Part shown: positions 8,390 through 64,000 of the stretch, piece after piece
Position numbering within the stretch: the first letter of the stretch is position 1
Layout: every line of letters begins with the position of its first letter
Origin: Candidatus Cloacimonadales bacterium
Lineage (GTDB): Bacteria > Cloacimonadota > Cloacimonadia > Cloacimonadales > JAFGVF01
Direction: 5' to 3'
Assembly (NCBI GenBank): GCA_963677815.1
Contig: OY782499.1
Location: 412,408 to 476,407, forward strand
DNA length: 64,000 nt
The notes under the pieces: generated by a model
The model's database searches: none
What the model saw: the letters and a program-made list of their open reading frames with translations, nothing else
Told to the model about the DNA's origin: nothing
Made by a program: the position numbers and the translations under genes

Positions 8390-8420
8390 AAAAAAGGGGA
8401 ACTTTAAAGTTCCCCTTTAT
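8390..8420. terminator. Hairpin terminator after ileS (possibly bidirectional)
   Basis: AAAAAAGGGGAACTTTAAAGTTCCCCTTT. Confidence 0.7.
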
Positions 8421-8522
8421 ATTTGGATTCAATTTCAAGTCTGGTGAAAAAAAGGTTCTCTCTCAAGTAGAGTGGGGCGTAGAAAAAAAGAGGAATACTT
8501 GAAGAAGTGGCTTAAGGGAACT

Positions 8523-9164: not shown

Positions 9165-9293
9165 TTAACTCTCCCAGGTTAACAACTGATACAGGACTAT
9201 TAAAATGCATCATCCTAGCTGCTACAGAGGAGCAAAATCTTTGTAGATTAAGATGTCACTTAAACCTAAACCTGCAGATGGTTTATCCTAGCT

Positions 9294-16278: not shown

Positions 16279-16333
16279 AATTTCCTCATTTATAGGTTTA
16301 ATGTTTAAAATCTCAAATCACATCAACTTATAA

Positions 16334-16349
16334 TGCAAGTATAGTTCCA
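16334..16349 (-). promoter_or_regulatory. Sigma54 (-24/-12) promoter upstream of the beta-helix gene
   Basis: Minus strand TGGAAC-TATAC-TTGCA, with GG-N10-GC spacing, 56 bp upstream of the ATG and next to an NtrC-family gene. Confidence 0.75.
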
Positions 16350-16484
16350 ATAATAAGCAATATTATATATTTTTTTAAATCACTATTTTCCATTACCTTA
16401 GAATATATTTCATCCAGTAATCTTCTAAATATAAACAATTATATCTTAAATTTTGTGGCATATTTGAGACTAGTCTCGAAATAA

Positions 16485-17828: not shown

Positions 17829-17928
17829 AAACTTATTTTACTGTTTTTGAAAAATATTGTCAAGAGAATATTTTCCCTTGTCTATTTTTTCATATTAATT
17901 CACACTTTAGTAGTCTCTTAGCGGATAA

Positions 17929-21734: not shown

Positions 21735-21825
21735 TGTTCCTCCATATTTTGAATTTATTATTTTCCTAAATTTAGCAAAAGGCTTATTATGGTCAAGAAG
21801 TAATTTGGATTTTACCTAAATTGAA

Positions 21826-21985
21826 CCCAAATGGTGAAGTAGATCTTTGAGAAGAGTACAGATTCTTTTAGCAAAATAGCTTACAGAATTTAAACGTATA
21901 TAATATATATATTCGGAAGAATTATGTAAGCTACTTTTGCAGAAGAATATAGTGCTATTCTCAAAGATCTATTGCATTATTTGGG
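21826..21985. mobile_element. Foldback MITE copy 3 (160 bp) with TTGAA target-site duplication
   Basis: CCCAAATGGTGAAGTAGATC...GATCTATTGCATTATTTGGG; TTGAA at 21821-21825 and 21986-21990. Confidence 0.85.
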
Positions 21986-22072
21986 TTGAACCTAGAATTT
22001 TAACAAATCATTTGGTGGTTTTCAGATAATAATTGTATCCACCTGAGATTATATTATTTTTCATTTAATAAG

Positions 22073-48536: not shown

Positions 48537-49007
48537 TTAATATTTCTCTTCATAGTCAAATGATCCATCAAATTTATAAAATTTCCATTTCCCTGTTTTT
48601 TTACCATCTTTGTAAAAACCTTTTAAAGCAATATTTCCATTTTCATGAAAGACATTGAAATCTCCATTTAATACTCCATTTGAATAATATTGTCTCAAGG
48701 ACAGCTTTCCATTTTCATAATATTGTAAAAATAATCCGTGCTGTTTATCATACTTCATTTCTGTTATATTGAATGGGGTACCATTTTCATAATATGTATA
48801 ACATGTTCCATGCAACATTCCATTCACAGTAGTACAGGATAATTTTACATTTCCATTAGAATAGTATTCTTTAATTTGTTTAGTTTCAATTTTGTTACTA
48901 TTACTTTTTTTGGTACTATCATTGCTAAATATAGGCGTATCTTCGCATCTCTCAGCTACCCACATAAAAAGAAATATTAGTATTATCATAAAAATAAACT
49001 GTTTCAT
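48537..49007 (-). CDS. MORN-variant repeat protein (YwqK-like), membrane-anchored or exported
   Basis: N-terminal hydrophobic segment; repeated YY.NG...G..HG units. Confidence 0.82.
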   Translation of the reverse strand: MKQFIFMIILIFLFMWVAERCEDTPIFSNDSTKKSNSNKIETKQIKEYYSNGNVKLSCTTVNGMLHGTCYTYYENGTPFNITEMKYDKQHGLFLQYYENGKLSLRQYYSNGVLNGDFNVFHENGNIALKGFYKDGKKTGKWKFYKFDGSFDYEEKY

Positions 49008-49265: not shown

Positions 49266-50201
49266 CTACTCATGTAGAGAAAACCGTTCAAGCTCTTCTA
49301 TAATTATTTGGCTTATTTCTTCATTTCTATTAAAGACCTTAAGATGCGAGGCATTAATATGTTTAGCCTTATGTTTTAATTTAAATTTATTCTTTTCAAA
49401 AAAATCAATATTTGCCATATTTTGACTTTCAGCTGATATTATTGAATCTCCAGTCTCTTTAGTATCTTTCTTAAAAATATTTATAAAGTTATCCCAAACA
49501 GACTCTTCTTCAGAGTCCTTGACATCATGAGCAATGATTGAAACATAATTGATATTTTCAGGGTGTGGTTGCATATTAAGATTATGTAAAAAACTATCTT
49601 TGCCCGAAGCGACAAGATCTTTAAGAGTATTGATAGATATTTCAGAATGAATTCCGAAGACATCTATAATAGCTTGTGCAGCTTTTGTGTCTGATCCTCC
49701 TACAACCAAGGTTGAAGCATACAAAATATTTGCGAGATAGCTCCCAAGATGAGGAGTAGCCAATGTTATGAGAGTTTCCACATAATTATCATTAAAGTTA
49801 TTAACAAGATAATTCCTAGCAATCAATCCACCCATACTATAAGCAACTATTAGGAAATTGTCATTATTAGTTTTTTCCCTCAATCCTTTAATCACAATTG
49901 CTAATTCGTTACTCAAGTTTTCTACAGTTTGGGTAGAATCAGAAAAAACTAAATTATATATATCGCCCTTTTTAAATTCTTGAGTGAAGTCTTGCTTAAT
50001 ATTGAAGTCCAAAGCCTTAACACTTCCCCCGTATTTATATCCGTTTGCTACTAACTTCTCAATTATTCCTGATTCTTCCCACATAAGTGCTTTAGAACCA
50101 TATCCTGGAATTAATAAGACAGCAGGATTTTCTTTTTTACTACATGATGCTATCAACAAAACGAAAGAACTAATAATTAAAAAACTTACAAATCTTCTCA
50201 T
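49266..50201 (-). CDS. Lipoprotein alpha/beta hydrolase (lipase/PGAP1-like)
   Basis: Lipobox LIASC; LLIPGY oxyanion region, AYSMGG nucleophile elbow, LATPHLGS, GDSII, ASH. Confidence 0.85.
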   Translation of the reverse strand: MRRFVSFLIISSFVLLIASCSKKENPAVLLIPGYGSKALMWEESGIIEKLVANGYKYGGSVKALDFNIKQDFTQEFKKGDIYNLVFSDSTQTVENLSNELAIVIKGLREKTNNDNFLIVAYSMGGLIARNYLVNNFNDNYVETLITLATPHLGSYLANILYASTLVVGGSDTKAAQAIIDVFGIHSEISINTLKDLVASGKDSFLHNLNMQPHPENINYVSIIAHDVKDSEEESVWDNFINIFKKDTKETGDSIISAESQNMANIDFFEKNKFKLKHKAKHINASHLKVFNRNEEISQIIIEELERFSLHE

Positions 50202-50276
50202 TTTCCCCTCTTCTGTAAAGTATTTTTATAATCTATGTCTCTATTTTTTTTGATTATCTTAACTAAGCATATTTCT

Positions 50277-51290
50277 CTATAAAGGCTCTGTCATAGGCTT
50301 TTCTTCAAATATTAGTTGCAGACAGATACCAGCAAATAATACAAAGAACAACCTATTAAACAAAAATCCAGGAATAATAATAAACTTATATGAGTTAAAG
50401 GACTTAACATAACACCATTTGTGGGATTCCTGAAGATTTAAATATGGAATATCGAAAATAAATTTACTTCTGATATTAATATAACTTAGTAATTCAATTT
50501 TGTCTCTAGTAAGAGTTTCTTCAACAAACAATTGTTTCAACAGAAAATCGACTCGAACTATTTGAACCTTGTTTCCTGGATAAACTGAATTGACATATTC
50601 ATGAATTTTATCTGTTGAACAAGTATAATATGTATTCATAATATGATTTTCAGGACCTTGCAAGTAATTCCAATAATCTTTATTATATGTGATAGTGTAA
50701 GCTACAGGTTGGAAATCAACTTGAGACATTTCAGGGCTTGAATAGTATTTATCAAGAATCTTTTCTAAAGGTGAAAGTTTATCTAGCATTCCAGGGATTA
50801 CCATATTAATTGCAATCACTCCAACAAGTAAAGAGTAGACGATTCCGATAATTAAAACGCCAATACTTCGCCAAAATAGAGAAGCATTCCTCCCTCCCAA
50901 ACCTAAATTTTTTACTTCAATCATTATGAATATGATTAATACAAATACAGCTAAAATATTATAAATGAAATTATCTGCAATATGACTAAACACTGAAGTA
51001 GAAACTAATTCCTCTGTAGTAACCAGTAAAGTCCAGCCAGCAATAATCACCATAAACAATCGGGGAAACATAGCTCCAATATGAGTTAAAAATTTGTCTG
51101 AATCTAAAATACCTGAGAGAAGTAAAAACGACAGAGATATTGCTATTAGTATTATTAAGATTGGGGGAACGATAAAATCATAAAATATATAGAAAATACA
51201 ATAAATAACAATAATTGTTATTACTTTTATTATTAACTTTAATATATTAATTAATATGTTTAATTTAATATTTAATTTGTTTAATATCAA
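50277..51290 (-). CDS. Multi-pass membrane protein of unknown function (possibly the 3' half of a frameshifted gene)
   Basis: About 6 hydrophobic segments, FPRL...IIAGW...EEL; TTG start overlaps the upstream ORF at a T7 run. Confidence 0.7.
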   Translation of the reverse strand: MILNKLNIKLNILINILKLIIKVITIIVIYCIFYIFYDFIVPPILIILIAISLSFLLLSGILDSDKFLTHIGAMFPRLFMVIIAGWTLLVTTEELVSTSVFSHIADNFIYNILAVFVLIIFIMIEVKNLGLGGRNASLFWRSIGVLIIGIVYSLLVGVIAINMVIPGMLDKLSPLEKILDKYYSSPEMSQVDFQPVAYTITYNKDYWNYLQGPENHIMNTYYTCSTDKIHEYVNSVYPGNKVQIVRVDFLLKQLFVEETLTRDKIELLSYINIRSKFIFDIPYLNLQESHKWCYVKSFNSYKFIIIPGFLFNRLFFVLFAGICLQLIFEEKPMTEPL

Positions 51291-52308
51291 AAAAACCTCC
51301 TATATGATTCTTTGCTCTTATCCAAATATTTTTGAAAAGGTAAAACACATCTTTACTAATTAACGTGAATAGCTTTCCTAGAGAATACCTGCGAGAAAAC
51401 CATTTGATTGCATCAGTATAAATGCTATTATCTGTTTTTTTCAACTCTTTAATTTTATTGTTTAGTGATTCTATTTTCCTTTTAAAATCTTCCTTTGATT
51501 CTATTTCTCTTGAAATTTTTTCTCTTTTATAAATGCCTTTTAATTCACTAATATTTTTTTTTATTTTTTCAAGACATTCAGAATATTCATCTTCTATATC
51601 CTTTTTAAACCAATGAGATAATTTATATAGCTCATTTACCCTTGAATCATTTAAGACTAATAGATATTGTTTTCCATATTTGATACTTTTTTTTAGAAAA
51701 ACTTCTGCTTTCTTTTCATCAAAGATTAAGTTATAATAATCATAAAGAAATTTTGAACTAATAGCATAGAAATAATAATTACTTCTTAACCTTGATTCTA
51801 TCTCAGCAAAATGCTCTGAATTTTCAAATAAGTCCGTTACTTCCCAATCAAATATGAAATCATGAATTAATTTTCTAAATATCTTTACGTATATTGGTTG
51901 GCTCTTTTCATCCTTTTCTTCTTCTTTAATTTTATTAGTTTTAAAAGAAATACCTTTATTTCTAATATGTTCATAGATATATTTTACAATTTCTTCTTTA
52001 TTATCTTCAATTCTACAATCTTTGAGTGTATTTTTAAGGTTTTCACCATCTGTTAATACTTTGTATAATGGTAACTTTATTAAGGTTACAATTTCTGGAT
52101 AAGTACTTTCTTGATCTTGCTTAATTATATTAAGAGCTTTGATGTAGGGATATAAATCATATTTAAAAACTAAATAATCTTGGGTTAATGATAAAGAAAT
52201 TAGGTAATATGTTTCATTACAAACTTCATAACTATGATGAATATAATAGAATTCTTTTGTTTTTTTATTATAATGAAAATTATATCCTTCAGTTGTAATC
52301 TTATCCAT
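51265..52308 (-). CDS. Hypothetical helical protein (start likely ATG 52308)
   Basis: Long ORF in the operon; FRKLIHDFIFD...FENS and WFSRRY segments; no recognisable family. Confidence 0.7.
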   Translation of the reverse strand: MDKITTEGYNFHYNKKTKEFYYIHHSYEVCNETYYLISLSLTQDYLVFKYDLYPYIKALNIIKQDQESTYPEIVTLIKLPLYKVLTDGENLKNTLKDCRIEDNKEEIVKYIYEHIRNKGISFKTNKIKEEEKDEKSQPIYVKIFRKLIHDFIFDWEVTDLFENSEHFAEIESRLRSNYYFYAISSKFLYDYYNLIFDEKKAEVFLKKSIKYGKQYLLVLNDSRVNELYKLSHWFKKDIEDEYSECLEKIKKNISELKGIYKREKISREIESKEDFKRKIESLNNKIKELKKTDNSIYTDAIKWFSRRYSLGKLFTLISKDVFYLFKNIWIRAKNHIGGFFDIKQIKY

Positions 52309-52318
52309 AATCTTATTC

Positions 52319-54022
52319 TTATTTTTTAATAAAGTCAAACAGTTCAATCGATTCATCAATTCCTAATATTGATTTAATCTCTAACTCTAGTAATTGCTTT
52401 GACTCAAGATAATCAGGATTATTCTCACCTGAATATTCCTTGATTCTCAATAATCTTAAATACAAATCTCTTAATGAAGGGTTTGATATAACTTTTATCA
52501 CATTTCTATTTTTTATATTTTTAATTAGTAGACTGTTTCCATTATAATTATCTATAATTGGATAATATCTTATAAAATCATAATAATCTAAAAAGCTTTC
52601 TTCTATTCTTGAATCCTTAATTTGGACACCTAAAAAGTGAGCAAATTTATACATAAATTGCTTAGGTGTATTTATTGGGTCTGCACCACTTGCCAGTTCC
52701 CAATGTTCGCAATGATGACTGATTCCGTTCTCTCTTAAATCATCTAAGAGAGCATTACTAAAAGCAGATATTGGGAAAAGATAAGCCTTTCCAAAAGGTG
52801 TTTTAATATTGTTATACCTACTATTCTCTGCACTATAATCGCTTTTAATTATATCTATCAATTCAGAACTAAATTCTCTTTCATTAGATTTTCCATTAAT
52901 TCCTAGTAGGTAGTCAATTAAAACAATATCATAGGTCCTTTCATCATCCTTAAGCGCACCATAACTTTTTTCAACTAATTTTACCTGTTTACTCCAACCT
53001 TGTTGATTACATCTCTCTTCTTTACATCCTGCAATAGGGGTATAAAACCTAAATGGAAGTTTTATTTGATCATCATCCATGTCTTTTTCTACCTTATTGA
53101 TGAATGTACAATCAGTACAATCTTTATCGGAACATTTGTTTGTCAAATCTCTATTTAGCAATTTACAGATGATCTTCCACTTTCTAGAAAGCTTATTACC
53201 TTTTTTATCCTGTTTTAGGCATATATCTGCGTAATCATCTACAATTAAGATTCTCCATTTATACTTACAAATCTTTTTTTTTAGTTTCTCATCGATTTCT
53301 TTTTCCATATAAGTTTCTGAATGGAACTTAAAGGGAATAACTTTAGAACTATGTGAATAGCTTCCAAAATCCCTTAAAAATGAGTTATGCATCATTCTTG
53401 TTTGAAACTCTATAAACTCTTGACTTACATGAGTTAAAAAAAGATTTCTAGAAAATGCGTCATGATAATCTAGTAAAACGTGTTCGAAATTTTGTTTGAA
53501 ATTATTATCATATAAGTGAAGATATCGATTCCAGATAGATGAATCCCAATAATATTTACGTTTTTCTATATTGAGATTCTTTATTATCTCTTTATTATCA
53601 TCATTTTCACTTAGCTTTAGATAATTTAAAAAATCAGTACTTATTAAAAGAATAGGAGAAAATTTCTTTTTATTTACCTGATAATGGTACTTAACAATAT
53701 ATTTAAATAATTCGTCATAATGTAGGTACTTCATCTTACAAAATAAGATTTTTAGGTTTGATCCATTAGCTGATTTTACTGTACGTTCATTATTCTGCGA
53801 GCCTTTTTTTTCTTCTGTGCTCGAAATTGGATTTGGGATTATTTCAAAATCTTTCAATTTCTTAACCCTTGAACCTACAATGAGAGTAGATAAGATATTC
53901 TTCAATGATGAACACCAATCAGTTTCTTCAACTAACCTTATTTCATATTTTCCCTTTTTTTCATCTTTTTCATAAACACAAAACTCAATACCAAACTTAA
54001 TTTTTTCATCACTATCTGACAT
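52319..54022 (-). CDS. Hypothetical protein with a divergent receiver domain containing a Cys-rich insert
   Basis: WRILIVDDYAD (beta1 acidic pair), YDIVLIDYLLG (beta3 Asp), LFPISAF (beta4 Ser); CSDKDCTDC insert. Confidence 0.65.
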   Translation of the reverse strand: MSDSDEKIKFGIEFCVYEKDEKKGKYEIRLVEETDWCSSLKNILSTLIVGSRVKKLKDFEIIPNPISSTEEKKGSQNNERTVKSANGSNLKILFCKMKYLHYDELFKYIVKYHYQVNKKKFSPILLISTDFLNYLKLSENDDNKEIIKNLNIEKRKYYWDSSIWNRYLHLYDNNFKQNFEHVLLDYHDAFSRNLFLTHVSQEFIEFQTRMMHNSFLRDFGSYSHSSKVIPFKFHSETYMEKEIDEKLKKKICKYKWRILIVDDYADICLKQDKKGNKLSRKWKIICKLLNRDLTNKCSDKDCTDCTFINKVEKDMDDDQIKLPFRFYTPIAGCKEERCNQQGWSKQVKLVEKSYGALKDDERTYDIVLIDYLLGINGKSNEREFSSELIDIIKSDYSAENSRYNNIKTPFGKAYLFPISAFSNALLDDLRENGISHHCEHWELASGADPINTPKQFMYKFAHFLGVQIKDSRIEESFLDYYDFIRYYPIIDNYNGNSLLIKNIKNRNVIKVISNPSLRDLYLRLLRIKEYSGENNPDYLESKQLLELEIKSILGIDESIELFDFIKK

Positions 54023-54089
54023 ATCAACCTACCATAATTTAAGTAATATTTCTTATTTACTACACATTCTTTAATCTAAATCAGTTTTA

Positions 54090-54800
54090 TTAATTACCTC
54101 TTAAATATTTTAAATCTATAACTTCTAATTTATTCTTTGCTTCTGTTAAAGTACTAGTAATATTATCAATACCAATGGCATTTTTAAAATTCCCTGGCTT
54201 AATACTTTGGAAAATTTTATTTATTTTTGACATTATATTAATAACATCATATCCAAATGGTAAAAATATAAAAAAATCTTCGTACTTGTACCACCTATTT
54301 AACAAACATTCTAGTTCTTGTAGAAATAGTTGAAAATAATCTTGATTATTAATATTTGCTTTTAAATCAGTACTTGTCATAATTGCCTGATTAAGAATAT
54401 CTATAACACTTGAGTCCTCATGACCATTAAAGAATAGCTGAAGTTTATCACAGATATCTAGGGCATCAAGGGGGAAATTCTCTGGTGATATATTACAAAC
54501 TGCTTTTTGAGTTTTATTTTCTATAATCAGATTTTCTTCAAATAAGAATATATAATTGGAGTCAATAAAATCCCAGAAACCCATTACTATTAGTTTTTTA
54601 TGATGAAAGCTCTCTCTAAAATATCTGAACCAAGGCTTATGAACTGAGTAATTCTTATCATTTATCTTCACTGGCTCTAAAATATATAAAACATCGAAAT
54701 CAAAATCATCTCCACATTTCCATAATGTAGTATTTGTAAATTCTTTGTGACTTAGAATTATATCTGAAAAATTATGAAATGAAGCTAATAGTTTAGTCAT
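54090..54800 (-). CDS. Hypothetical protein; degenerate alpha/beta N-domain plus a helical His-containing C-domain
   Basis: FDVLYILEP, KLIVMGF, LFFNGHED; ATG at 54800 overlaps the upstream stop. Confidence 0.6.
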   Translation of the reverse strand: MTKLLASFHNFSDIILSHKEFTNTTLWKCGDDFDFDVLYILEPVKINDKNYSVHKPWFRYFRESFHHKKLIVMGFWDFIDSNYIFLFEENLIIENKTQKAVCNISPENFPLDALDICDKLQLFFNGHEDSSVIDILNQAIMTSTDLKANINNQDYFQLFLQELECLLNRWYKYEDFFIFLPFGYDVINIMSKINKIFQSIKPGNFKNAIGIDNITSTLTEAKNKLEVIDLKYLRGN

Positions 54801-55554
54801 AGATTGGCCCTTCAATGTTTCTAAGGCATTTGTTAATCATATTTAAGAAACAACTAACATCTTTGTCTTTATCTGGTTGTAAATAATCTATTACAGTATT
54901 ACATGATCGTATGAATTCATCATCCTTTTTATTGCTTATTGATTTATAATATTCAATAAATTTGTTAATTTTATCTCTATAATTTTTAAATTCTGATTCA
55001 GGAAATTCAGAGATATTATTAAAATTTTCTATAATGACCTCTTCTCGAAATTCATAAATCTTCTGCTTTAGTGAATGCACATAATAATTCCAAATATCAT
55101 CGAAAATTTCTTTTTTTAAGGAAAAATTTACTTGATCTTTGGAATTTTTTACAGCACTATCTCTGAATAATCCCTCATCTACAAGTTTTGAGTATATTGG
55201 CGATTCTACTCTATTTGTGTTACTCCCAGAGAATATTTTTATAGTTGGTTCTTCACAAGTAAATTTTCCCATGAACGAATTATTGACCATTTCCTCGGTA
55301 AACTTGTCTGGCGTTCCTCCATGCAGTAATAAAAGAGCTTTATAGTCAGATTTTGAGTTTATATATTCAATTATATCCTGCGTTGTATATTCATATCTAG
55401 CATCTTTTTTGGTAAACCCACAAAAGAGGCAGTCACTAGTATTTTCTATTTTGACTTCAAACTTGTAACCTTCACCAATAAAGTCACAAAAATCTTCTAC
55501 ATCCTCACTCTTATACCATCTCCATACAACGATTAACAATCTTTTTTTATCCAT
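54793..55554 (-). CDS. Hypothetical protein, possibly a degenerate receiver-like fold
   Basis: GGAGG RBS; RLLIVVW, ALLLLHGG, IKIFSG beta-strand pattern. Confidence 0.6.
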   Translation of the reverse strand: MDKKRLLIVVWRWYKSEDVEDFCDFIGEGYKFEVKIENTSDCLFCGFTKKDARYEYTTQDIIEYINSKSDYKALLLLHGGTPDKFTEEMVNNSFMGKFTCEEPTIKIFSGSNTNRVESPIYSKLVDEGLFRDSAVKNSKDQVNFSLKKEIFDDIWNYYVHSLKQKIYEFREEVIIENFNNISEFPESEFKNYRDKINKFIEYYKSISNKKDDEFIRSCNTVIDYLQPDKDKDVSCFLNMINKCLRNIEGPIYD

Positions 55555-55566
55555 AACAGACCTCCT

Positions 55567-58500
55567 TTATGAACCAAACAAAACTTTTGTTAGATTATAT
55601 TTCAACTGAAAATCATCCTTAAAGGCTAACGCATCTTCTACAGCATTTAGAAAAGACTCTATTGGTTTAAATACTGTTATTTTAGAATATTTAGACCCTA
55701 AGTTGTCAATCCATAGTGCTCGTCCTCGTCCCGATGTGATTACAATCCTTAGATTATTTAATGATTTTGAATCTTTAAGTCCTAGCTTAGAGTCAAAAAA
55801 ATCACCAATCTCTTTTTCTGATATCCCGTACGACTCTATATATGAGAGATGTAGAACGATAAAATTATAATTTGTAATGTAGTCCATTTTTTCAATTTCA
55901 TATTTTTCATTATGAACTTTTAGATTTATCATTTCATATAAGTTACCTTTATCATTTTTAGCAATCCTTTGGTAAATTCTATTATCAATTATACATATTT
56001 TTGACAAAACAACTTCAATAAATTCACTTGAGATTACTTTCTTTTTGAGATCATCACTTATGAGAGATATATCTCCATCTACATCTTGTATAAAGTGTGT
56101 TCGTAGCCATCCATGGCTTCTAAATTTAATAATTTTGTTTTCAAGAATTCCTTTATTATTACCACCATGTAGAATGAATAATTCTGTATCAGAATTATTT
56201 ACTTTTTGTTGTTGCATACATTTAAAATCTATTATTGCTAATTTTGATCTATGCTGTTGTTCGGGATTCTCTATACATTGTGAAAAATGAGTTGTTTTAT
56301 TCTGTAAGAATTTTCTATTCCAGCACTGGTAGATTGCAAATTTGTCTTGTTCAGTTATTTCCTGTTTCTTAATTCTTTCTATCAATTTATCACAAACATC
56401 TGAATTGTTTCTATTTTTTGTTTGTACCAAAAGATCATCTAATTCTAAATGATTACTTATATCATAATATGTTATTATCCTTATAATACCATTCTTTGTT
56501 AGCTCTTTTTGAATACTAGGAGTCAACTCATCTACATATATGAACCTAAACCTACTGGTATTTTCATTTTCCATTGATATACTAGAATTTTCATTGTAAT
56601 ATCCTATAAATTCTCCTCTCCAGAGGTAGATACTTTTTAGGATTCTTCCATTTATTTCATTATTTATTTCATTATTTTTTTCTTCTGAGAAATCAAGCCA
56701 AAATCTTTTCTCCTTTTCATTATAGAAATATTTATCTCTATTGGTAGTCTTGATATTATTACTAAAATCAACACTCGCAAAAGTATTATTTAATAACATA
56801 GCTGAACATATTTTATCTTGGAAAGTACCACCTAACTTAGGAGATCCAGTATCTGTTATAATACTTTCACTAGTTTTATTTTTTAGAAAATCTATGACTC
56901 TCAATTCTATAGATTTATTACTCTTAGTAGTTTTTGAAGTTTTTAATGAATTATCATGATCTAAATAAACTGAAATCTTGAAGAAATTTGGATTATGTAT
57001 TTCTTCTCTCTCAGCATGTGAATCACTTGAAAAATCTAACTCTAATGAGTCTATCCTAATATTGAAGTTCAGACTATCCGGTTTATTTCCGGTTGTAAAT
57101 TTAAAATGTTTAATATTTCTAATTGTGTTTTCAAAAATAGTGAATAAAGAATGTCTTCCTACAACTCCACCAGGCAGAAAAATATTATACACAGGTTTAC
57201 TTAATTCCTCTCTTACTATCTGATGGTATTCACCAGGATAGATAAAATTATAAGGAGAGAAACCAATATTTTTACCCCCATCAAGAGTTTTATAATTAAT
57301 TTCTGTATTGGAACATTTAAACTTATCAATTATTGATAAGTTTATTCTAGCAAAATCAAGTTTTACATATTTTTTCCCGTCAAGCGAATGAGGTAACTTT
57401 TCTTTATTATTAAATTGATAAACATTAAGAAACAAATCTTCAGGCAGTTCAATGTTAATATTAAGTTTCACAAACCCTTCAGAATGAGCAATCGTTCCTA
57501 GATATAAAGGGTTATCAGCAAAATCATTCCACAGTAAATCATAGAGATTTTGTGTCTCACCTCCAAATGCCATATCTCTTGTTACACCGCTCCAAAATGC
57601 AGCCTTATCTCGTAAAAATTTCATGAATTTGGCTATATGGGTATCCGCTGGTATTGGGAAACCAATTTCCTTTGTCATTACATCTATTTTGGCTGGGTCA
57701 GTAGTTTTATCATTTTCAGTTGGGGCAGTAGTATAAGAATATTGTAAAAATCTATTAATCTCCTCCTTATTTTCAAAACAATCTATTATCTCCTGTAAAT
57801 TAGTATAAGAATCAGAATTAGATCTATCATTTAAGCCCAAAACCTTGAATACTTCACTATACTTTTTACCATATTTTTTCAATTCATCTTGCCCAATATT
57901 ATATGGATATAAATTATATAAAGAGGTTATTTGGGGAGACTTATCTTCTGAATTACCTTCTCCGATTTTTATTGGTTCGTGTAATTTATTACTTCGTTTA
58001 TCAAACCACCACTTAAGAGCTGCTAAACTGTGAGCACTTATATTGTGTGCGTATGAATCTACAAGGATGGAAATTATTGCTGTTTTGATCTGGTTTTTTC
58101 TTAATACCGATTCAAACCTTTTACTGATTATAGAGTTCAATATATGCTGATATTTAGCAGCTATATTTGTCCATTGAATGTATTTCTCTTCACATTTATA
58201 TATATTTACCTTTGATATAAAACTTACAAAAGCAGCTGATTGATACCAAACTTGTCCATTAAATATTTGGGGAGTAAATGGTATGGGAATTTCAAAAATA
58301 AATATTTCTTCACTGGTCCCTTCATCTCCAACTGAAAATTTTTTATAATAATTCTTAGAAATCTCAGAGAATTCAGAATAAGCATCATTGTTTGAACTAT
58401 TCATAGCACTCCATATCCAATTACTATTTCTTACTGAATCAATACTGTTTACATTAATAATATTAATGTTCTTATCATTATTAATATTTATATGCTTATC

Positions 58501-58929
58501 ATCTAAAATAATTATTGGATAGGGGTTCAACTTGTAAGTATGAATAAAATCCCATAAGTGTATTTTGTAATTATTTTCTTTAAGCCATGAGAAGTAATCA
58601 GAATAATCAACAATTTCAGTAATAGGTATTGAATTCCCATTACTGATTGTATTCCACTTTAAACAAACATCATTATTTTTTTTTACTCGATTAGTATATA
58701 TAACTGTTTCAAATTTTGGTTTATCTGCCTTAAATGGATTCCATAATGCGAATATGATATGTTTATAATTTTTACTATTCCCAATAATATGTTTAAAATC
58801 CTTTATCATTAAATTAAGCAATTCTTCACAAAATTCATGATTAATATTGTCTGTTAATGAAACATCTGCTGAAAATTTCTCCCATTTCACTTTATCTAGA
58901 GATATAGAATTATTCTTTTCTATACACAT
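55567..58929 (-). CDS. Large divergent histidine-kinase-like protein with a C-terminal degenerate receiver
   Basis: H-box-like SILVDSYAHNISAH, N-box-like IFENTIRNIKH, G-box-like GSPKLGGT; C-terminal ICIIDNRI / FIVLHLS / IVITSGRG / FKP receiver pattern. Confidence 0.62.
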   Translation of the reverse strand: MCIEKNNSISLDKVKWEKFSADVSLTDNINHEFCEELLNLMIKDFKHIIGNSKNYKHIIFALWNPFKADKPKFETVIYTNRVKKNNDVCLKWNTISNGNSIPITEIVDYSDYFSWLKENNYKIHLWDFIHTYKLNPYPIIILDDKHININNDKNINIINVNSIDSVRNSNWIWSAMNSSNNDAYSEFSEISKNYYKKFSVGDEGTSEEIFIFEIPIPFTPQIFNGQVWYQSAAFVSFISKVNIYKCEEKYIQWTNIAAKYQHILNSIISKRFESVLRKNQIKTAIISILVDSYAHNISAHSLAALKWWFDKRSNKLHEPIKIGEGNSEDKSPQITSLYNLYPYNIGQDELKKYGKKYSEVFKVLGLNDRSNSDSYTNLQEIIDCFENKEEINRFLQYSYTTAPTENDKTTDPAKIDVMTKEIGFPIPADTHIAKFMKFLRDKAAFWSGVTRDMAFGGETQNLYDLLWNDFADNPLYLGTIAHSEGFVKLNINIELPEDLFLNVYQFNNKEKLPHSLDGKKYVKLDFARINLSIIDKFKCSNTEINYKTLDGGKNIGFSPYNFIYPGEYHQIVREELSKPVYNIFLPGGVVGRHSLFTIFENTIRNIKHFKFTTGNKPDSLNFNIRIDSLELDFSSDSHAEREEIHNPNFFKISVYLDHDNSLKTSKTTKSNKSIELRVIDFLKNKTSESIITDTGSPKLGGTFQDKICSAMLLNNTFASVDFSNNIKTTNRDKYFYNEKEKRFWLDFSEEKNNEINNEINGRILKSIYLWRGEFIGYYNENSSISMENENTSRFRFIYVDELTPSIQKELTKNGIIRIITYYDISNHLELDDLLVQTKNRNNSDVCDKLIERIKKQEITEQDKFAIYQCWNRKFLQNKTTHFSQCIENPEQQHRSKLAIIDFKCMQQQKVNNSDTELFILHGGNNKGILENKIIKFRSHGWLRTHFIQDVDGDISLISDDLKKKVISSEFIEVVLSKICIIDNRIYQRIAKNDKGNLYEMINLKVHNEKYEIEKMDYITNYNFIVLHLSYIESYGISEKEIGDFFDSKLGLKDSKSLNNLRIVITSGRGRALWIDNLGSKYSKITVFKPIESFLNAVEDALAFKDDFQLKYNLTKVLFGS

Positions 58930-59827
58930 ATAAGTTTACTCCCCATTGTATGTTAAATGTTACATTTTCTTTAATTGATTTATCACAAAGAAATTCACTC
59001 ATTTTGGTTGCAAGAAGTACTTTATTTTCTTTAGACAAATCAGAACCTAGAGAAGAAACACTTCCTTTTTTTATCCAATTAATAACGTCATCCCATGAAA
59101 TGTTATTAATCCATGAAAATCCCACTTTTTCAACAAAACTATATTTCATTTGATTAACTAAGAATTTATCAACTTTTGATATATTTGAGAACTTTACTTC
59201 GGGAGTCCATGAGCTCAATTCATTTCTGAATAAAAAATACTGTTGCCAGAATTCTCTTGAAACATCACTAAGAGGGTTATTGTCTTCATGAATGAAATCA
59301 AATTCCCCATCAAGCATTTTGTACCAACCATTTAATTCTGCTATCACAATTACTGAGTTTATTTTCATTCTACAATTTAATGATTGTAAAAAAGATTCCC
59401 AGTTAAAATAGTGTAGTACTGAAATAAATATTGCCAAATCAATATTATCAGTATATTTCGTTCCAACATTAGCATCATATAAATAATAAATTACATCTAA
59501 GATAGGATAGTTTCTTAAATTATCCTCAAATTTTTCTATCATTTTTTTAGATATATCAAAACATTCAAGAGAATAATCATAACCAGCTTGATTAAAAGCT
59601 TCTGCAATATTGAATATTGAACGCCCAGTTCCAGTTCCAGTGTCTAATATCTTATTTTTTTCATTTATATTTAAGTACTTTAGCAAAAATATTCCCATCT
59701 CATAAAAACTTTCTTTAGGAATATACGTAGATTTTTCAAAATAATCAACAGCTTCAGTAACAAGATAAGGATTACTCACATTTTTTTTTGTGCTATTTTG
59801 CAAATTCAACAACATCTCCTTTATCAT
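58910..59827 (-). CDS. Class I SAM-dependent methyltransferase (start uncertain)
   Basis: ILDTGTGTGR, CFDISKKM, YDAN, SVLHY. Confidence 0.85.
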   Translation of the reverse strand: MIKEMLLNLQNSTKKNVSNPYLVTEAVDYFEKSTYIPKESFYEMGIFLLKYLNINEKNKILDTGTGTGRSIFNIAEAFNQAGYDYSLECFDISKKMIEKFEDNLRNYPILDVIYYLYDANVGTKYTDNIDLAIFISVLHYFNWESFLQSLNCRMKINSVIVIAELNGWYKMLDGEFDFIHEDNNPLSDVSREFWQQYFLFRNELSSWTPEVKFSNISKVDKFLVNQMKYSFVEKVGFSWINNISWDDVINWIKKGSVSSLGSDLSKENKVLLATKMSEFLCDKSIKENVTFNIQWGVNLYVYRKE

Positions 59828-60884
59828 TGAAATTAGCTAATTTCAATTCTACATGTGAAACACCAAAACTATCTATAATAATATCACCAGAAATTCCTGA
59901 AAATTTTTTATTCGTAAAGTTTTCAAAAGTTATATTTTTTCCAGACAATAAAATATCTATTAGGAATTTTCCTGTGTCATAACAATATACACCATCAAAA
60001 GTACTATTCCTACCATATAAAGAATTATATTGCTCTTGAAATCTACTGTAATCATCATTTGGGTTAATTTCGAATGAGGCTGTAACAAATATCAGATTAC
60101 TAGTTAACTCTTTTGACATTTGTGGTGCTGTCATTATCCCAAGTCCTCCCACTATCTTAGATAATAAATTATAGTTGTATGCTTCTTTCAATATTACTGG
60201 ATACAAATAACCAAAGTCTATAGTATGAATATACTCTACATTACTTTCCCCAAGTTTTAACAACTGATCTTTAAAGCTTTTAGTTGAAAAATCATAACTT
60301 TCAGTATGAATAAGTTCAATATTACGCTTTTCAAGTTCTTCCTTGAGAATATTTTCAATAGCATATCTAGATTCAGAAGTGTTGATGTATAACCCTCCAA
60401 TTCTTTTAGCTCCAATTCTTGAAAAATGGTTAGCTATTTTATTCATTTCATCGCCAATGTTGTAATAAATACTAATTACATTCTCATATTCTCTGGCTAA
60501 GGTTGGATCAATGCTCAATGAAAACTGAATATTATTATCTTCTAAACATTTTGGAGCTATAGCCCTTGCTACAACAGTTAATGAGGTAATATAATACTTT
60601 ATATTTTTATTATTCAAATAAGTATAAGCTGTTAAGCCGTCTTTAGCATTTCCTTTACTATCTTGGAATACAAATTCTATCTTCATTTTATCTTGATTAA
60701 TATTTGATTGTAATAGCTCAAGAGTGTTTTTTTCTTCAATTCCTAGATAAGAAAGCTCTCCTGTCAAAGGCAATATTGCCCCAATCCTAATCACATCATC
60801 ATCTTTCTTTTTATCACAACTTGTTGTTATAAAAGCTGTAGTAACAAGGAACACCAACACTAGAACAGTACAAAATTTCTTCAT
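59793..60884 (-). CDS. ABC transporter substrate-binding lipoprotein (LivK/Peripla_BP_6 family)
   Basis: Lipobox TTSC; IRIGAILPLTG..SYLG, QDSKG, F.GISG.I..D..G. Confidence 0.88.
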   Translation of the reverse strand: MKKFCTVLVLVFLVTTAFITTSCDKKKDDDVIRIGAILPLTGELSYLGIEEKNTLELLQSNINQDKMKIEFVFQDSKGNAKDGLTAYTYLNNKNIKYYITSLTVVARAIAPKCLEDNNIQFSLSIDPTLAREYENVISIYYNIGDEMNKIANHFSRIGAKRIGGLYINTSESRYAIENILKEELEKRNIELIHTESYDFSTKSFKDQLLKLGESNVEYIHTIDFGYLYPVILKEAYNYNLLSKIVGGLGIMTAPQMSKELTSNLIFVTASFEINPNDDYSRFQEQYNSLYGRNSTFDGVYCYDTGKFLIDILLSGKNITFENFTNKKFSGISGDIIIDSFGVSHVELKLANFNDKGDVVEFAK

Positions 60885-60899
60885 TATTTCTCCTCCAAT

Positions 60900-61616
60900 T
60901 CAAAAAAAGAATTTCTCTAATTCGTTTATATTTTTCGTTTCTTCAATCTTATCAATTTTACCTAATTTAAGCAAGGCCATTCTATGAGCAATTTTATGTG
61001 CTTCAGATACATTTTGTTCAATAAGTAAAATACTTAACTTCAACTCTTTTTGGATAGTTTCAATTAGCTTGAACATGTTACCTCTATTAATCGGAGAAAG
61101 CCCTGCAGAAGGCTCATCTAGAATTAAAAATTTAGGTTCTTGTAACAATATCATGATCAGAGCCAATTGATGTTTTTCTCCTCCACTTAATAAGGAAGCA
61201 TTTTTATCTAAATTCTTATTATTTTGTAAAAGATCGAATAAGTCTTTATATTTCAATAAATATTGATTTAGCATTTTTTTGTCAAGTTTTCTTCCAGCAA
61301 ATTTAATATTTTCTTCAACAGTTAAATTTGTAAAGGTTAAGCCCTCCTGCATAAAAGCGCCAAAACTGAGTTCAGTCATCTTGTAAACAGGAAGATTTTT
61401 TTTTATAAGATCATCATCTTCATAAAGTATTTCACCATTTCTATAAGGGACTAAATTTAGTATTGCTTTTGCCAGTGTTGATTTACCTGAACCATTTTGT
61501 CCAACTAATGCTACTATTTCATTGGAGAAGATATCTAGCTCAAGACCATTTATGATATTGCTATCTTTAACATATCCTGCATGTAAGTTATTGATTTTTA
61601 ATTTTATACTATTCAT
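60900..61616 (-). CDS. ABC ATPase, LivF-like
   Basis: L.AGY, GQNGSGKST, LSGGEK, LDEPSAGLSP, LIEQN. Confidence 0.9.
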   Translation of the reverse strand: MNSIKLKINNLHAGYVKDSNIINGLELDIFSNEIVALVGQNGSGKSTLAKAILNLVPYRNGEILYEDDDLIKKNLPVYKMTELSFGAFMQEGLTFTNLTVEENIKFAGRKLDKKMLNQYLLKYKDLFDLLQNNKNLDKNASLLSGGEKHQLALIMILLQEPKFLILDEPSAGLSPINRGNMFKLIETIQKELKLSILLIEQNVSEAHKIAHRMALLKLGKIDKIEETKNINELEKFFF

Positions 61617-62423
61617 TTAAATACCTAAATATTTTATTCTGACAATAGGATTACCAATTACGTCTTCCATAGTTCCTCTAATTCTAGCTTTGCCCTTATC
61701 GATGAAAAAGCAATAATCAGCGATATCTTCAAGAACTTTAAAATTGTGTTCAATAATAATAATTGTAACTCCTGTTAATTTATTTATTTTACGTATTACT
61801 TCACAGATTATTTGTCTTATCTCAGGATGAACCCCAGCAGTAGGTTCATCTAAAAGGAGCAATTTATGGTCTGACATTAACAATCTAGCAATACCCAACA
61901 ATCTCTGTTGACCGTGTGATAATTCTGAAGCGTAATTATTTCTGTTTTGCCAAAAGTAGTTATCTTTGCCAAAAAGTTCAATTAAAACCTTTTTAGCTTT
62001 AACAACTCTCTTTTTTTCCTTTTCTTTATGTTTTTTTCTCTTAAATAGTGTAATAAAAGGAGTTTCACCAAAGTTATCGTCTCCCCCAATCAACAAATTC
62101 TCTAAAATAGTCATATCTAAAAAAATATGATTATCCTGAAACAAACGGCCAATTCCAATTCCCTTCAGTTCATTAGGATTAAGTTTCAATAAATCTATCT
62201 GCTTATCCCCAGTATCGTAGCAGATCTTTCCTTTATCACAATCAATTAAACGAGAGATAATATTGAAAAGAGTAGTCTTGCCTGCTCCATTTGTACCCAT
62301 TATTGCAATAATTTCACCAGCATTAAAATCAATCTGTAAAGAATCAAATAAAAGTGGAGCTTCTGCATTTCTAGAAGAAAAACTTTTTGAGAGTCCTTGA
62401 ATTTTTAAAACTGAATAACTCAT
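61617..62423 (-). CDS. ABC ATPase, LivG-like
   Basis: GTNGAGKTTLFN, GIGRLFQ, LSHGQQRLL, LLDEPTAG, IEHN. Confidence 0.9.
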   Translation of the reverse strand: MSYSVLKIQGLSKSFSSRNAEAPLLFDSLQIDFNAGEIIAIMGTNGAGKTTLFNIISRLIDCDKGKICYDTGDKQIDLLKLNPNELKGIGIGRLFQDNHIFLDMTILENLLIGGDDNFGETPFITLFKRKKHKEKEKKRVVKAKKVLIELFGKDNYFWQNRNNYASELSHGQQRLLGIARLLMSDHKLLLLDEPTAGVHPEIRQIICEVIRKINKLTGVTIIIIEHNFKVLEDIADYCFFIDKGKARIRGTMEDVIGNPIVRIKYLGI

Positions 62424-63295
62424 TATTTAATCCTATAATTTCCGACTAAACCTTCAGGTTTAAATCTCATGAGTATAATTAGAATCAAGCCATAAATTAT
62501 CTGTCGCATATTGGCAGCTATTGAATCAGGTAGGCCTATAAATCGAAGAATTTCCGGTAGCAAAATAACAAAAATAGAACCCACTACAGGACCTTTTATA
62601 TTCCCTAAACCACCAATGAGTAGAGCTGATAAAATAAAAATCGATTCATCAAGATTGAAACTTGTAGGATCAATATAGGTAACATAGGTAGCATATAAAA
62701 ATCCAGCAATTCCAATGAATGAGGAAGATATAGCAAAGGTTCGAATTTTTAGTGAAGTGATATCCTTCCCCAATGTTATCAAGGCCAGTTCATCTTCTCT
62801 CATTGCTTTTAATAACCTACCGAAAGGGGAGTTAATTAAGTAATAAAAAATGAAAATCGTAAAAAGACTCATAACTGTAGAAAAAATTAGAAAAGGAATA
62901 ATTCCAGATACTTGATAAAATCCTAAAAGTTTAGGAGCAGGTATTCCAGGTATTCCATAAGGTCCTTTAGTTACTGAAATCCAATTATATAAAACCGAGT
63001 AAGCTATAATCTGAAATCCCAAGGTCGAAAGCACAAAATAGTCATTCTTGAGCCGAAGAGAAGTAAGAGCTAATAATAGGCTGATAAGACCTGTTGCCAA
63101 CATAGCAAATACTAAAGCTGGGATTAACGGTAAATGCATTGTAGTCAAGGCTAATACAGAGCAATAAGCTCCAATTCCATAGAATGCAGCTTGCCCCAAA
63201 GATAAAAGATTTGTCATTCCTACTAAAAGATTTGAACTTACTGTTAAAACTATATAGATATTTATCATAATAATTATATGGAAGAAATAGTTCAT
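62423..63295 (-). CDS. ABC permease, LivM-like
   Basis: NLLVG...LSLGQAAFYGIGAY, LRL..DY, SPFGR.LKAMREDE, IGGLG...GPVVG, FKPEGL. Confidence 0.92.
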   Translation of the reverse strand: MNYFFHIIIMINIYIVLTVSSNLLVGMTNLLSLGQAAFYGIGAYCSVLALTTMHLPLIPALVFAMLATGLISLLLALTSLRLKNDYFVLSTLGFQIIAYSVLYNWISVTKGPYGIPGIPAPKLLGFYQVSGIIPFLIFSTVMSLFTIFIFYYLINSPFGRLLKAMREDELALITLGKDITSLKIRTFAISSSFIGIAGFLYATYVTYIDPTSFNLDESIFILSALLIGGLGNIKGPVVGSIFVILLPEILRFIGLPDSIAANMRQIIYGLILIILMRFKPEGLVGNYRIK

Positions 63296-64000
63296 TAAAC
63301 CTCTCTCTCCTTTTTACCTAAAATACCTTGGGGTCTGAAAATAAGGAATATAATCAAAACAACAAAGGTTATAGCCGATTGCCATTTAGAAGAGAACATC
63401 CAGATTGTTAGAGCTTGGATTATTCCAATAGAGAAACCCCCAATTAGTGGTCCTGCAAAAGAACCTATACCACCAATAATAAAAGCAACAATAACATTTA
63501 ACAACATTGGCATTCCAATATAAGGATCCATACCAACATCATAACTTATCAAGATACCTGCTATGGCAATCATAATTCCACTAATCCCAAATAAAAGCAA
63601 CCGTGTTCGCAATATATTTATCCCCATTATCTGAACCAGAAGGTCATTATTACTAAAAGCCCTTATAACAATTCCTAAATTTGTCTTCTTTAAGACAATA
63701 AAAAAGATTATAATAATAAGCAATGAACTTATAAGCTGATATATTTGTGGATAAGTAACTATCATTCCTGAAAATTTTATTGTGTTAGCTATATCTGAAT
63801 TTAAGATTTTTGTTTCATTTCCAAATATCATAGCAATTATATTAACGATTATAGTTACGACACCTATTGAACTTATAGTTACAACATTGGAAGAACTTTT
63901 CTTAATAAACAAGGGTTGGTAGATTGTTTTATCGATAAGAATACTAATGTTCATAGTCAAAATAATGGAAACAAATATTGATAAGGAGATGTTTATCCCT
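63295..64000 (-). CDS. ABC permease, LivH-like (5' end outside the window)
   Basis: T.LG..IRA, IIGGIGS..G...GG, FRPQGILG; frame stays open to the window edge (GINISLSIFVSII...). Confidence 0.88.
   Translation of the reverse strand, partial: GINISLSIFVSIILTMNISILIDKTIYQPLFIKKSSSNVVTISSIGVVTIIVNIIAMIFGNETKILNSDIANTIKFSGMIVTYPQIYQLISSLLIIIIFFIVLKKTNLGIVIRAFSNNDLLVQIMGINILRTRLLLFGISGIMIAIAGILISYDVGMDPYIGMPMLLNVIVAFIIGGIGSFAGPLIGGFSIGIIQALTIWMFSSKWQSAITFVVLIIFLIFRPQGILGKKEREV

Follow-up and report, generated by a model that had tools for sequence, protein, structure and literature searches.

In the quorum-sensing relay of Vibrio, signalling passes from the enzyme and kinase pairs CqsA/CqsS or LuxM/LuxN to LuxU and then to LuxO. 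In CbrA, a transporter-like domain forms part of the kinase itself. The passages cited describe CbrAB as a transport-coupled NtrC-family system (PMC6591292), ShkA-type proteins as cytosolic hybrid histidine kinases with a pseudo-receiver (10.1101/675454; PMC7010744), and ComQ as an isoprenyl transferase adjoining the kinase ComP in a system that shows pherotype diversity (PMC4008528; PMC4408185). Here, we analyse a stretch of 64,000 nucleotides (the window; contig OY782499.1, positions 412408-476407) from the complete 2.88-Mb genome of Candidatus Cloacimonadales bacterium (assembly GCA_963677815.1). One end of the window carries a cluster of minus-strand genes centred on F0, a divergent histidine-kinase-like protein of 1120 residues (Table 1). 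We give about even weight to the view that this region is one accessory operon for an undescribed kind of two-component signalling system. Our literature search, which covered papers outside their supplements, found no description of the cluster or of its kinase family. The system would work like a two-component system. At the sequence level, it does not qualify for the curated kinase and receiver families, and its partner proteins are without known relatives.

F0 had no match in Pfam, NCBIfam or PADLOC. Residues 240-780 alone found no Pfam or NCBIfam model, HisKA and HATPase_c included, even at E-values up to 10, and Pfam detected none of the domains when they were cut out singly. A hidden Markov model (HMM) of 40 F0 homologues retrieved no kinase from the sequences of solved structures, giving chance PUF4 matches at an E-value of 0.7. 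The AlphaFold2 (AF2) model of F0 has a predicted template modelling score (pTM) of 0.70, and all 50 of its top 50 VIA-align entries are histidine kinases or GHKL proteins. It matches only histidine-kinase structures comprising the dimerization and histidine phosphotransfer (DHp) and the catalytic and ATP-binding (CA) domains, which align from about residue 241-296. These clear lists come from VIA-align only; Foldseek returned nothing at E≤0.001 for the models of F0 and of the 567-residue response-regulator-like protein of the cluster.

Residue conservation in F0 was counted in 73 homologues from the fetched loci. The positions of a motif on the predicted DHp helix are kept in 70-73 of them, among which H295 and H300 are each found in 72 and N296 in all 73. 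A second group consists of E600, R604, N605, K607 and H608 (73/73 each) with N601 (71/73), and a third of G700, G701, Q704, K706 and C708 (73/73 each) with D705 (72/73). In our interpretation, these are H-box-like, N-box-like and G-box-like motifs, respectively. The model predicts a histidine-kinase fold with a DHp hairpin carrying a conserved candidate phospho-acceptor histidine (H295 or H300), and a putative Bergerat-fold ATP-binding domain with N and G boxes. The initial annotation, made from the sequence of the window, had called the 1120-residue protein kinase-like, and both the fold matches and the near-invariant motifs bear this out.

In the model, the strands and helices in the last 140 residues of F0 follow one another as in a receiver, and weak Foldseek receiver matches of the F0 model were Spo0F, VpsT and 3lte. 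D982 follows strand 1 in 71 of the 73 homologues, with an asparagine next to it; T1065 follows strand 4 (67/73), and R/K1088 (71/73) and P1089 (67/73) follow strand 5. The phospho-acceptor aspartate at the end of strand 3 is not present in this domain, and H1027 occupies the position in 72 of 73 homologues. The domain looks like an aspartate-less pseudo-receiver as defined in PMC12632262. In the cited part of that work, glutamate is common at the D position of pseudo-receivers, asparagine at DD2 and arginine at K; by this pattern of replacements, the histidine of F0 is unusual, and its asparagine and arginine changes are typical. The middle domain of F0 (residues ~775-975) carries conserved H921, R937 and H939.

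The ShkA-type structure 6qrj is among the structure matches of both the F0 and the 567-residue models. Like ShkA, F0 is modelled as a soluble kinase in which DHp-CA is followed by receiver-type domains without phospho-acceptor function, and its pseudo-receiver may be regulatory or ligand-binding. Unlike ShkA, to which it has no sequence relationship, F0 has large CA inserts, the extra middle domain and, in some homologues, N-terminal enzyme fusions. With the Vibrio relay, the system shares an enzyme gene adjoining the kinase gene, a C-terminal receiver-type domain on the kinase and, in relatives, an output of the NtrC-type sigma-54 activator kind. It differs from that relay in that F0 is putatively cytoplasmic and without a HisKA or HATPase_c sequence match, and has histidine instead of aspartate in the receiver-like domain, so that no relay from the kinase to a histidine phosphotransfer (HPt) protein is evident. 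In addition, no HPt protein was identified, a dedicated ATP-binding cassette (ABC) importer is present, and the cluster in the window is without a sigma-54 activator.

A word-seeded search returned 85 F0 homologues, none of them named. An exhaustive HMM search of 1.84 billion proteins gave 1251, 508 and 329 F0 representatives at E-values of ≤1e-3, ≤1e-10 and ≤1e-30, respectively. The 329 representative clusters at the strictest threshold form a sizeable kinase family that is invisible to Pfam, NCBIfam and PADLOC; because none of their models detects F0, two-component censuses using those models would miss it. The family is also unusual in combining metabolic enzyme fusions, an in-operon Liv importer, a pseudo-receiver with a near-invariant histidine and two obligate partners.

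We scanned one genome per species and found 108 F0 relatives, of which 78 distinct loci were kept. They derive from Cloacimonadota, Aminicenantes, Ignavibacteria, Bacteroidales, Cytophagales, Bacteriovoracaceae and, for the majority, Saprospiraceae/Lewinellaceae, as well as from one Eubacteriales metagenome-assembled genome (MAG) and one Promethearchaeota (archaeal) MAG. Flavilitoribacter nigricans DSM 23189 and Arcicella sp. LKC2W are cultivable carriers. When the proteins of the window were compared with the 78 loci by tblastn, F0 was found in 78, the 241-residue protein in 28, the 567-residue protein in 24, LivH/M/G/F/K in 13-20, the 253-residue protein in 11, the membrane protein in 5, the 364-residue protein in 3, the lipase in 1 and the methyltransferase in none. 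Every match lies on the same strand with the order preserved, and the recurrence of this order in 78 loci shows that the arrangement is not due to chance. The single operon proposed in the initial annotation was recovered here, with Liv, methyltransferase, kinase, receiver protein and the soluble and membrane pair co-occurring across phyla.

Clustering of same-strand ORFs (open reading frames) revealed the general plan of the loci: a receiver of ~120 residues and LivHMGFK (in some loci only), one or more enzymes, F0, a 253-like protein, a 241-like protein, an NtrC-type regulator, a 567-like protein and, again in some loci only, the protein family F8. Among the 54 loci with at least 6 kb of downstream sequence, F0 is followed by a 253-like gene in 40, a 241-like gene in 43, an NtrC-type gene in 44 (two more are cut by contig ends), a 567-like gene in 23 and F8 in 8. 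Among the 52 loci with at least 7 kb upstream, a polyprenyl-synthase-like gene precedes F0 in 36, a Liv importer in 12 and a small receiver in 9. Two F0 genes or fragments lie within 20 kb of each other in the Saprospiraceae loci L011, L034, L055, L016 and L070, with sizes of 1050 and 1061 residues in L034 and 1045 and 1063 residues in L055, which suggests tandem duplication of the system.

In the window, 13 minus-strand ORFs fill 49266-64000 and are packed so tightly that neighbours overlap or are separated by no more than 75 nt. The ORF listing reproduces the gene order and the junctions at 63295, 62423, 61616/61617, 58929/58910 and ~54800 that had been noted at the outset. The operon runs past the window end: in the extension of the locus within its own genome (L080), the start of LivH would be coordinate 64167, and the gene of a canonical 121-residue receiver adjoins LivH directly upstream. 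As LivH is cut by the window end and the receiver gene precedes it, the operon comprises 14 genes over ~15.3 kb; none of their reading frames is disrupted, and they are tightly coupled. The cluster contains one terminator-like site against a mean of 4.1 in shuffles, i.e., fewer than the shuffles, and a scan for sigma-70 promoters was uninformative in such AT-rich DNA (136 sites, 110 expected). Within the cluster, we saw neither phage nor mobile-element genes, and six of the 13 cluster proteins encoded inside the window are without a significant Pfam or NCBIfam match. The impression of AT-rich DNA proved correct: the GC content is 0.267-0.283 at 48-60 kb, whereas values of 0.30-0.35 prevail in the remaining window (range 0.29-0.38). 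F0 is present in two of 40 relatives searched, and in one of six genomes of the same genus. The AT-rich DNA and the presence of F0 in only two of 40 relatives mark the cluster as accessory.

Table 1. Features of the F0 operon in the window, with coordinates in the 64,000-nucleotide stretch.
Feature	Coordinates	Strand	Evidence or remark
LivH-type permease	63295..64000, cut by window end	-	Pfam BPD_transp_2 8e-24
LivM-type permease	62423..63295	-	Pfam BPD_transp_2 3e-41
LivG-type ABC ATPase	61617..62423	-	Pfam ABC_tran 4e-29
LivF-type ABC ATPase	60900..61616	-	Pfam ABC_tran 4.5e-27
LivK-like substrate-binding lipoprotein, hypervariable ligand-binding body	59793..60884	-	Pfam Peripla_BP_6 4.9e-22
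Class I S-adenosylmethionine (SAM)-dependent methyltransferase, 305 aa	58910..59827	-	Pfam Methyltransf_31 1.2e-8, Methyltransf_25 2.8e-8
Variable cassette: mature LivK, methyltransferase and F0 residues ~1-280	58089..60760	-	blastn against L001 (same-genus locus)
F0, 1120-aa divergent histidine-kinase-like protein, putatively cytoplasmic	55567..58929	-	AF2 model, structure matches
Predicted DHp helix of F0, residues 247-316, H-box-like D291-S-x-x-H295-N296-x-x-A-H300	57982..58191	-	Model secondary structure
Predicted CA (Bergerat-fold ATP-binding) domain of F0 with large inserts, residues ~450-773	56611..57582	-	
C-terminal receiver-like (beta-alpha)5 domain of F0, His at phospho-Asp position	55576..55998	-	Strand/helix order in model
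253-aa conserved partner (families F7/F3/F21)	54793..55554	-	Directly downstream of kinase in 40/54 loci
241-aa conserved partner	54090..54815	-	Present in 43/54 loci
Short spacer at the position of the NtrC-type regulator of relatives	54023..54089	-	241-aa and 567-aa genes 67 nt apart
567-aa response-regulator-like protein: N-terminal domain (1-250), receiver domain with insert, helical C-terminus	52319..54022	-	
364-aa soluble protein, N-terminal globular half of family F8	51265..52359	-	True start probably ATG at residue 18
337-aa polytopic membrane protein, C-terminal half of F8	50277..51290	-	PADLOC Mem_01 4.6e-6
Alpha/beta-hydrolase (lipase-like) lipoprotein	49266..50201	-	Pfam Palm_thioest, DUF915, PGAP1, DUF676 ~1e-7, weak

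The 121-residue protein upstream of LivH matches Pfam Response_reg (2.4e-18), with D7, D8, D50, S83 and K105-P106 conserved in 10 orthologues, and is a canonical (beta-alpha)5 receiver with the full set of active-site residues. A receiver had also been predicted in the 567-residue protein, and the structure model is in line with this: it predicts a receiver fold in which the acidic pocket seems to be kept, with Asp370 as the putative phospho-acceptor. The 567-like proteins of Saprospiraceae carry leucine-rich repeats (LRRs). A complex prediction for the 567-residue and 364-residue proteins scored 0.00, which says nothing either way.

The two partner proteins downstream of F0 are conserved at individual positions, with H78, Y121 and W155 invariant in 35 sequences of the 253-residue family and P48, G131, H132 and P186 in 38 sequences of the 241-residue family. 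The sole family match of the 253-residue protein is a weak one to PADLOC Csn2 (1e-4), and the ESM Atlas model of the 253-like protein from Flavilitoribacter is poor (pLDDT 0.33), with chance-level matches. For the 241-residue family, the profile found no match among solved-structure sequences and the ESM Atlas gave no usable match. Comparison with a receiver alignment by hhalign was not significant for either protein (E-values of 0.43 and 0.05 for the 253-residue and 241-residue proteins, respectively), and we consequently do not call them receiver-like, as the initial annotation had done. F8, which is split into the 364-residue and 337-residue proteins in the window, is a single fused protein of 579-828 residues in six loci; five of these six homologues match Mem_01 weakly (best 1.7e-4). 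The residues conserved within the families are all kept in the proteins of the window. The lipase-like protein at the end of the cluster has a lipoprotein signal, judged by eye. It had been suggested as a lipolytic effector, but it occurs with the kinase in one of 78 loci only, and we rejected it as a conserved effector; it is a genus-specific passenger outside the conserved system.

Other large proteins are found in relatives at the place of the 567-like protein and F8. In L006, both are replaced by an HD-CE protein with a TCAD9/APH-like kinase domain (16434-18965; Pfam scan), and in L039 by a REC-HD-CE protein (15050-17716); an ORF of similar size and position to the HD-CE gene of L006 lies at 16285-18864 in L017. 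The replacements in L006 and L039 indicate that the output module is interchangeable. Family F11 (~554-643 residues; 610 residues at 14611-16443 in L003) has no Pfam match and lies downstream of the kinase in L003, L008, L009, L010, L015 and L072. These are six loci without a 567-like gene, and F11 is a candidate output.

Upstream of the kinase, the gene set of a Liv/HAAT-type importer is complete, with two permeases, two ATPases and one binding protein in a single operon. The Pfam matches to BPD_transp_2 (twice), ABC_tran (twice) and Peripla_BP_6 support the earlier reading of a LivH-M-G-F-K transporter, and those to Methyltransf_31 and Methyltransf_25 that of a SAM methyltransferase. As regards a branched-chain amino acid as the candidate substrate, LivK has 4n0q as its sole solved-structure relative by sequence (E-value of 9e-6) and scores 17 bits against the NCBIfam LivK-type model with its cut-off of 477. 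For the methyltransferase, no solved-structure relative was found by sequence. Residues 12-258 of the methyltransferase align with the N-terminal domain of the fused kinase homologues P0111 (E-value of 2.7e-9), P0015 and P0007, which constitutes a Rosetta-stone link between the free enzyme and the kinase. The N-terminal domains of fused F0 homologues are HMGL-like (4), methyltransferase (4), radical SAM (4, including one with an additional methyltransferase) or polyprenyl-synthase-like. In other Liv-type loci, the interval between LivK and F0 is occupied by class I or O-methyltransferases (L003, L010, L017, L018, L020 and L068), radical SAM enzymes with BATS (L004 and L020), other radical SAM or B12-radical SAM enzymes (L007, L009 and L039), an HpcH/HpaI aldolase (L018), or a short-chain dehydrogenase/reductase (SDR) together with a pyridoxal-phosphate (PLP) enzyme (L072). 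We infer that these are tailoring enzymes of the amino-acid or keto-acid type, which would fit the importer family.

As in CbrAB, solute uptake would be coupled to a kinase that has a sigma-54 activator as its partner, suggesting that what is transported is also what is sensed. Unlike CbrAB, the system encodes its Liv-type ABC importer separately, by five genes of the same operon, and does so in only 12 of 52 loci. The likeness to ComQXPA lies in the polyprenyl-synthase-type gene that immediately precedes the kinase in 36 of 52 loci and in an enzyme and a kinase N-terminus that are polymorphic between conserved flanks. The differences are that no ComX-like peptide gene was found, that ComP is a membrane kinase, that the regulator is NtrC-type and not ComA-type, that the window carries a methyltransferase and not a polyprenyl synthase, and that the enzyme of the relatives scores 25.4 bits in Pfam, below the cut-off of 27. 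We rejected membership in ComQXPA, as the window has no ComQ-like gene and its overlapping genes leave no room for a peptide gene. In Saprospiraceae or Chitinophagales loci (L024 6863-7258, L029, L032 and L048), small proteins of the families F16/F17 (113-132 residues, hydrophobic N-terminus, no Pfam match) are encoded as a pair, flanked by the upstream palindromes on one side and the polyprenyl-synthase-like gene on the other; a role as precursors or membrane partners is conceivable.

Comparison with the same-genus locus L001 by blastn revealed a sharp mosaic. The two share 85% DNA identity over 3.86 kb, a stretch that runs from the small receiver through LivHMGF into livK, of which it takes in the first 124 nt. 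From 60760 to 58089 DNA similarity is undetectable, and over the remainder it amounts to 69-73%. The breakpoint falls just 3' of the signal-peptide region of LivK, of which approximately the first 43 residues (signal peptide, lipobox and first strand) are near identical; overall the two LivK proteins are 28% identical. Three close pairs combine LivHMGF identities of 85-96% with 27-34% for LivK and 23-32% for the F0 N-terminus. Between Arcicella and Emticicia, for instance, LivH/M/G/F are 91/96/91/85% identical and LivK, the F0 N-terminus and the F0 core 28%, 32% and 36%. Two Aminicenantes loci show 76/84/72/61% against 28%, 32% and 38%, and the Ignavibacteria loci give similar figures. No homologue of the N-terminal 250 residues of the F0 of the window could be detected in a search of 5.8 billion proteins of comparable length. 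Judged from these alignments, the ligand-facing parts appear to be exchanged, or to diversify far faster than the transporter core. The sharp replacement of this cassette offers a testable case for the diversification of signalling specificity beyond the few model quorum-sensing systems.

Most relatives encode a protein of ~460-500 residues between the 241-like and 567-like genes. Its domains, read by Pfam from the orthologue of the L001 gene at L068:14133-15527, are REC, Sigma54_activat (1e-60) and HTH_8. The regulator gene of L001 (12648-14036) is without a counterpart in the window, where 54253..54050 corresponds to L001 12483..14020 by blastn. The host genome has rpoN and at least 10 other genes resembling bacterial enhancer-binding proteins (bEBPs), the best of which is 35% identical to that of L001 and located elsewhere. 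The window itself contains two sigma-54 activator-like genes, at 16518-17798 (-) and 30353-31717 (+), which are 31-33% identical to the L001 regulator and unrelated to the operon by position. The initial annotation had stated that the cluster lacks a helix-turn-helix (HTH) output. This is true of the present genome but peculiar to it: since 44 of 54 loci have the NtrC-type regulator, its absence here is a local loss. In the Cytophagales loci L013, L018 and L035, the regulator is likewise missing, and F0, the 567-like protein and F8 are retained, so that a regulator-less form exists elsewhere.

The relatives also provide indications of how the operon may be controlled. TTCGGAA-N-TTCCGAA palindromes are enriched, with 25 matches in the loci where simple shuffles give a mean of 3.8. 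Inspection by eye places 14 of these upstream of the first cluster gene, spread over 11 loci. L017, L039 and L068 have sigma-54-like GG-N10-GC (-24/-12) motifs no more than ~60 nt from the first gene, and in L052 such motifs lie close to the palindromes. In the genome studied here, the small receiver gene is preceded, at a distance of ~300-345 nt, by palindromes matching those of L001 (L080 1285-1246). A repeat of ~175 bp (L080 1058-1229, which would be window 64650-64821) separates these upstream palindromes from the first gene. It has ~40 copies of 86-99% identity across the 2.88-Mb genome and matches itself at ~72% on the opposite strand, resembling a miniature inverted-repeat transposable element (MITE). 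Further copies of the repeat are found inside the window at ~4342-4513 and 21821-21991, and L001 has one in opposite orientation at the far end of its contig (20040-20231). A palindrome ~200 nt upstream of the first gene was rejected as a regulator site, being inside this ~40-copy repeat. No sigma-54-like motif was found in the own-genome region upstream of the operon, and where L001 has the GG-like -24 element, the own genome reads AG. Taken with the loss of the regulator gene, this suggests that the local copy has left sigma-54 control.

The reading that accounts best for these observations, and which we hold with middling confidence, is that an accessory two-component system responds to a small molecule which is imported and then tailored by an enzyme. 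This molecule, most likely a derivative of an amino acid or keto acid, would enter through the Liv importer with its own binding lipoprotein. The adjacent methyltransferase, whose counterpart in some relatives is the N-terminal domain of the kinase, would act on or bind the imported molecule, and the state of the enzyme and the N-terminal module would set the activity of F0. Phosphorylated F0 (His295) may then phosphorylate the 121-residue receiver and the receiver domain of the 567-residue protein (Asp370). In most relatives, it may also phosphorylate the NtrC-type sigma-54 activator, which would probably drive the operon from the upstream palindromes. The outputs remaining in the present genome would be the 567-residue regulator and presumably the pair of 364-residue and 337-residue proteins, with the 567-residue protein putatively controlling the F8 membrane protein. 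The 253-residue and 241-residue proteins would serve as obligate partners, and the lipase as a passenger.

Several observations weigh against this reading. The receiver-like domain of F0, without a phospho-aspartate, implies that there is no classical internal relay, and no conserved lysine was found at the end of strand 5 in the 567-residue receiver. The 253-residue, 241-residue and F8 proteins carry no assigned fold. The Liv importer in 12 of 52 loci, against the polyprenyl-synthase-like gene in 36, shows that import is no general requirement. The strand bias of the sigma-54 motifs is modest (73 versus 47), and simple shuffles were the only control for the palindrome enrichment. Finally, the missing regulator, the MITE-like repeat and the lack of a sigma-54-like promoter mean that the local copy may be rewired or decaying.

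The mosaic could also reflect pherotype-like cell-cell signalling, in which the variable enzyme makes or finishes a secreted signal, LivK and the Liv transporter re-import it, and the kinase N-terminus reads it inside, with swapped cassettes producing incompatible signal types as in ComQXP. This is unlikely in our judgement. It would explain why the three parts expected to touch the ligand are unalignable between close relatives whose flanks are 69-96% identical, and why the first 250 residues of F0 stand alone; the position of the polyprenyl-synthase-like gene next to the kinase is that of ComQ, the NtrC-type regulator that is encoded downstream from a hybrid-like kinase is reminiscent of the LuxO circuit of Vibrio, and autoregulation through the upstream palindromes is probable. 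However, neither an exporter nor a signal-precursor gene was found in the window, the overlapping genes from LivK through the methyltransferase to F0 fit no small peptide gene, the polyprenyl-synthase match stays below the Pfam cut-off, and different nutrients or an arms race could produce the same cassette diversity. A conflict or defence role, with the kinase sensing an invader or stress cue and the receiver proteins activating damaging effectors (the membrane pair here, HD-type or other proteins in relatives), we consider clearly unlikely. The AT-rich accessory island found in two of 40 relatives, the fast evolution of the signalling half, the varying outputs (HD-CE with TCAD9/APH-like in L006, REC-HD-CE in L039, LRRs in Saprospiraceae), the weak resemblance of F8 to Mem_01 in five of the six fused forms, and genes for a giant Tubulin_2 protein, a trypsin-vWA protein and an SF1 helicase just outside the window would all suit it. 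Against it, an NtrC-type activator with a nutrient-type importer is atypical of abortive-infection systems, the lipase is not conserved, phage and mobile-element genes were not seen in the cluster, and PADLOC matches neither the kinase nor the 241-residue or 567-residue protein. The defence-like character floated in the initial annotation gained nothing from PADLOC, which recognised no known defence system and gave three matches only: mad2 for the methyltransferase (4.4e-11, in the SAM-binding core), Mem_01 for the 337-residue protein and Csn2 for the 253-residue protein. The mad2 match is ordinary methyltransferase similarity with no other MADS protein present, and membership in MADS was rejected, as none of the eight other proteins scanned matches any mad model.

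The state of the local copy bears on a further alternative, namely that the cluster is a rewired or decaying remnant in this genome, its parts no longer acting together, of an ancestral system that was functional. The clean absence of the regulator gene, the ~40-copy repeat between the upstream palindromes and the first gene, and AG in place of the GG-like -24 element of L001 point this way; yet 14 intact, tightly coupled reading frames, the retention of all family-conserved residues in the proteins of the window, and the regulator-less loci L013, L018 and L035 with their kinase, 567-like and F8 genes make such decay very unlikely. Also improbable, to about the same degree as a role in defence, is that the loci represent an unrecognised class of diversifying small-molecule recognition, in which a swappable cassette would set the ligand identity and a histidine-based relay would run on flavodoxin-like or receiver-like folds (His1027 of F0, His78 of the 253-residue and His132 of the 241-residue protein), serving to tell kin or strains apart or to sense invaders across several phyla.

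Directly upstream of the operon, L080 encodes a 1298-residue protein with an N-terminal Tubulin_2 domain (2e-33; 1334-5230, -), followed by a trypsin-like protease of 1147 residues, which has a vWA domain and, at its C-terminus, a membrane segment (5243-8686, -), and a divergently oriented superfamily 1 (SF1) helicase (AAA_11/AAA_12; 9901-12000, +). These three genes may form a separate conflict-type gene set. Small lipoprotein-like MORN_2 genes flank the wider region on both sides, at 48537-49007 (-) in the window and at 8920-9489 (-) in L080.

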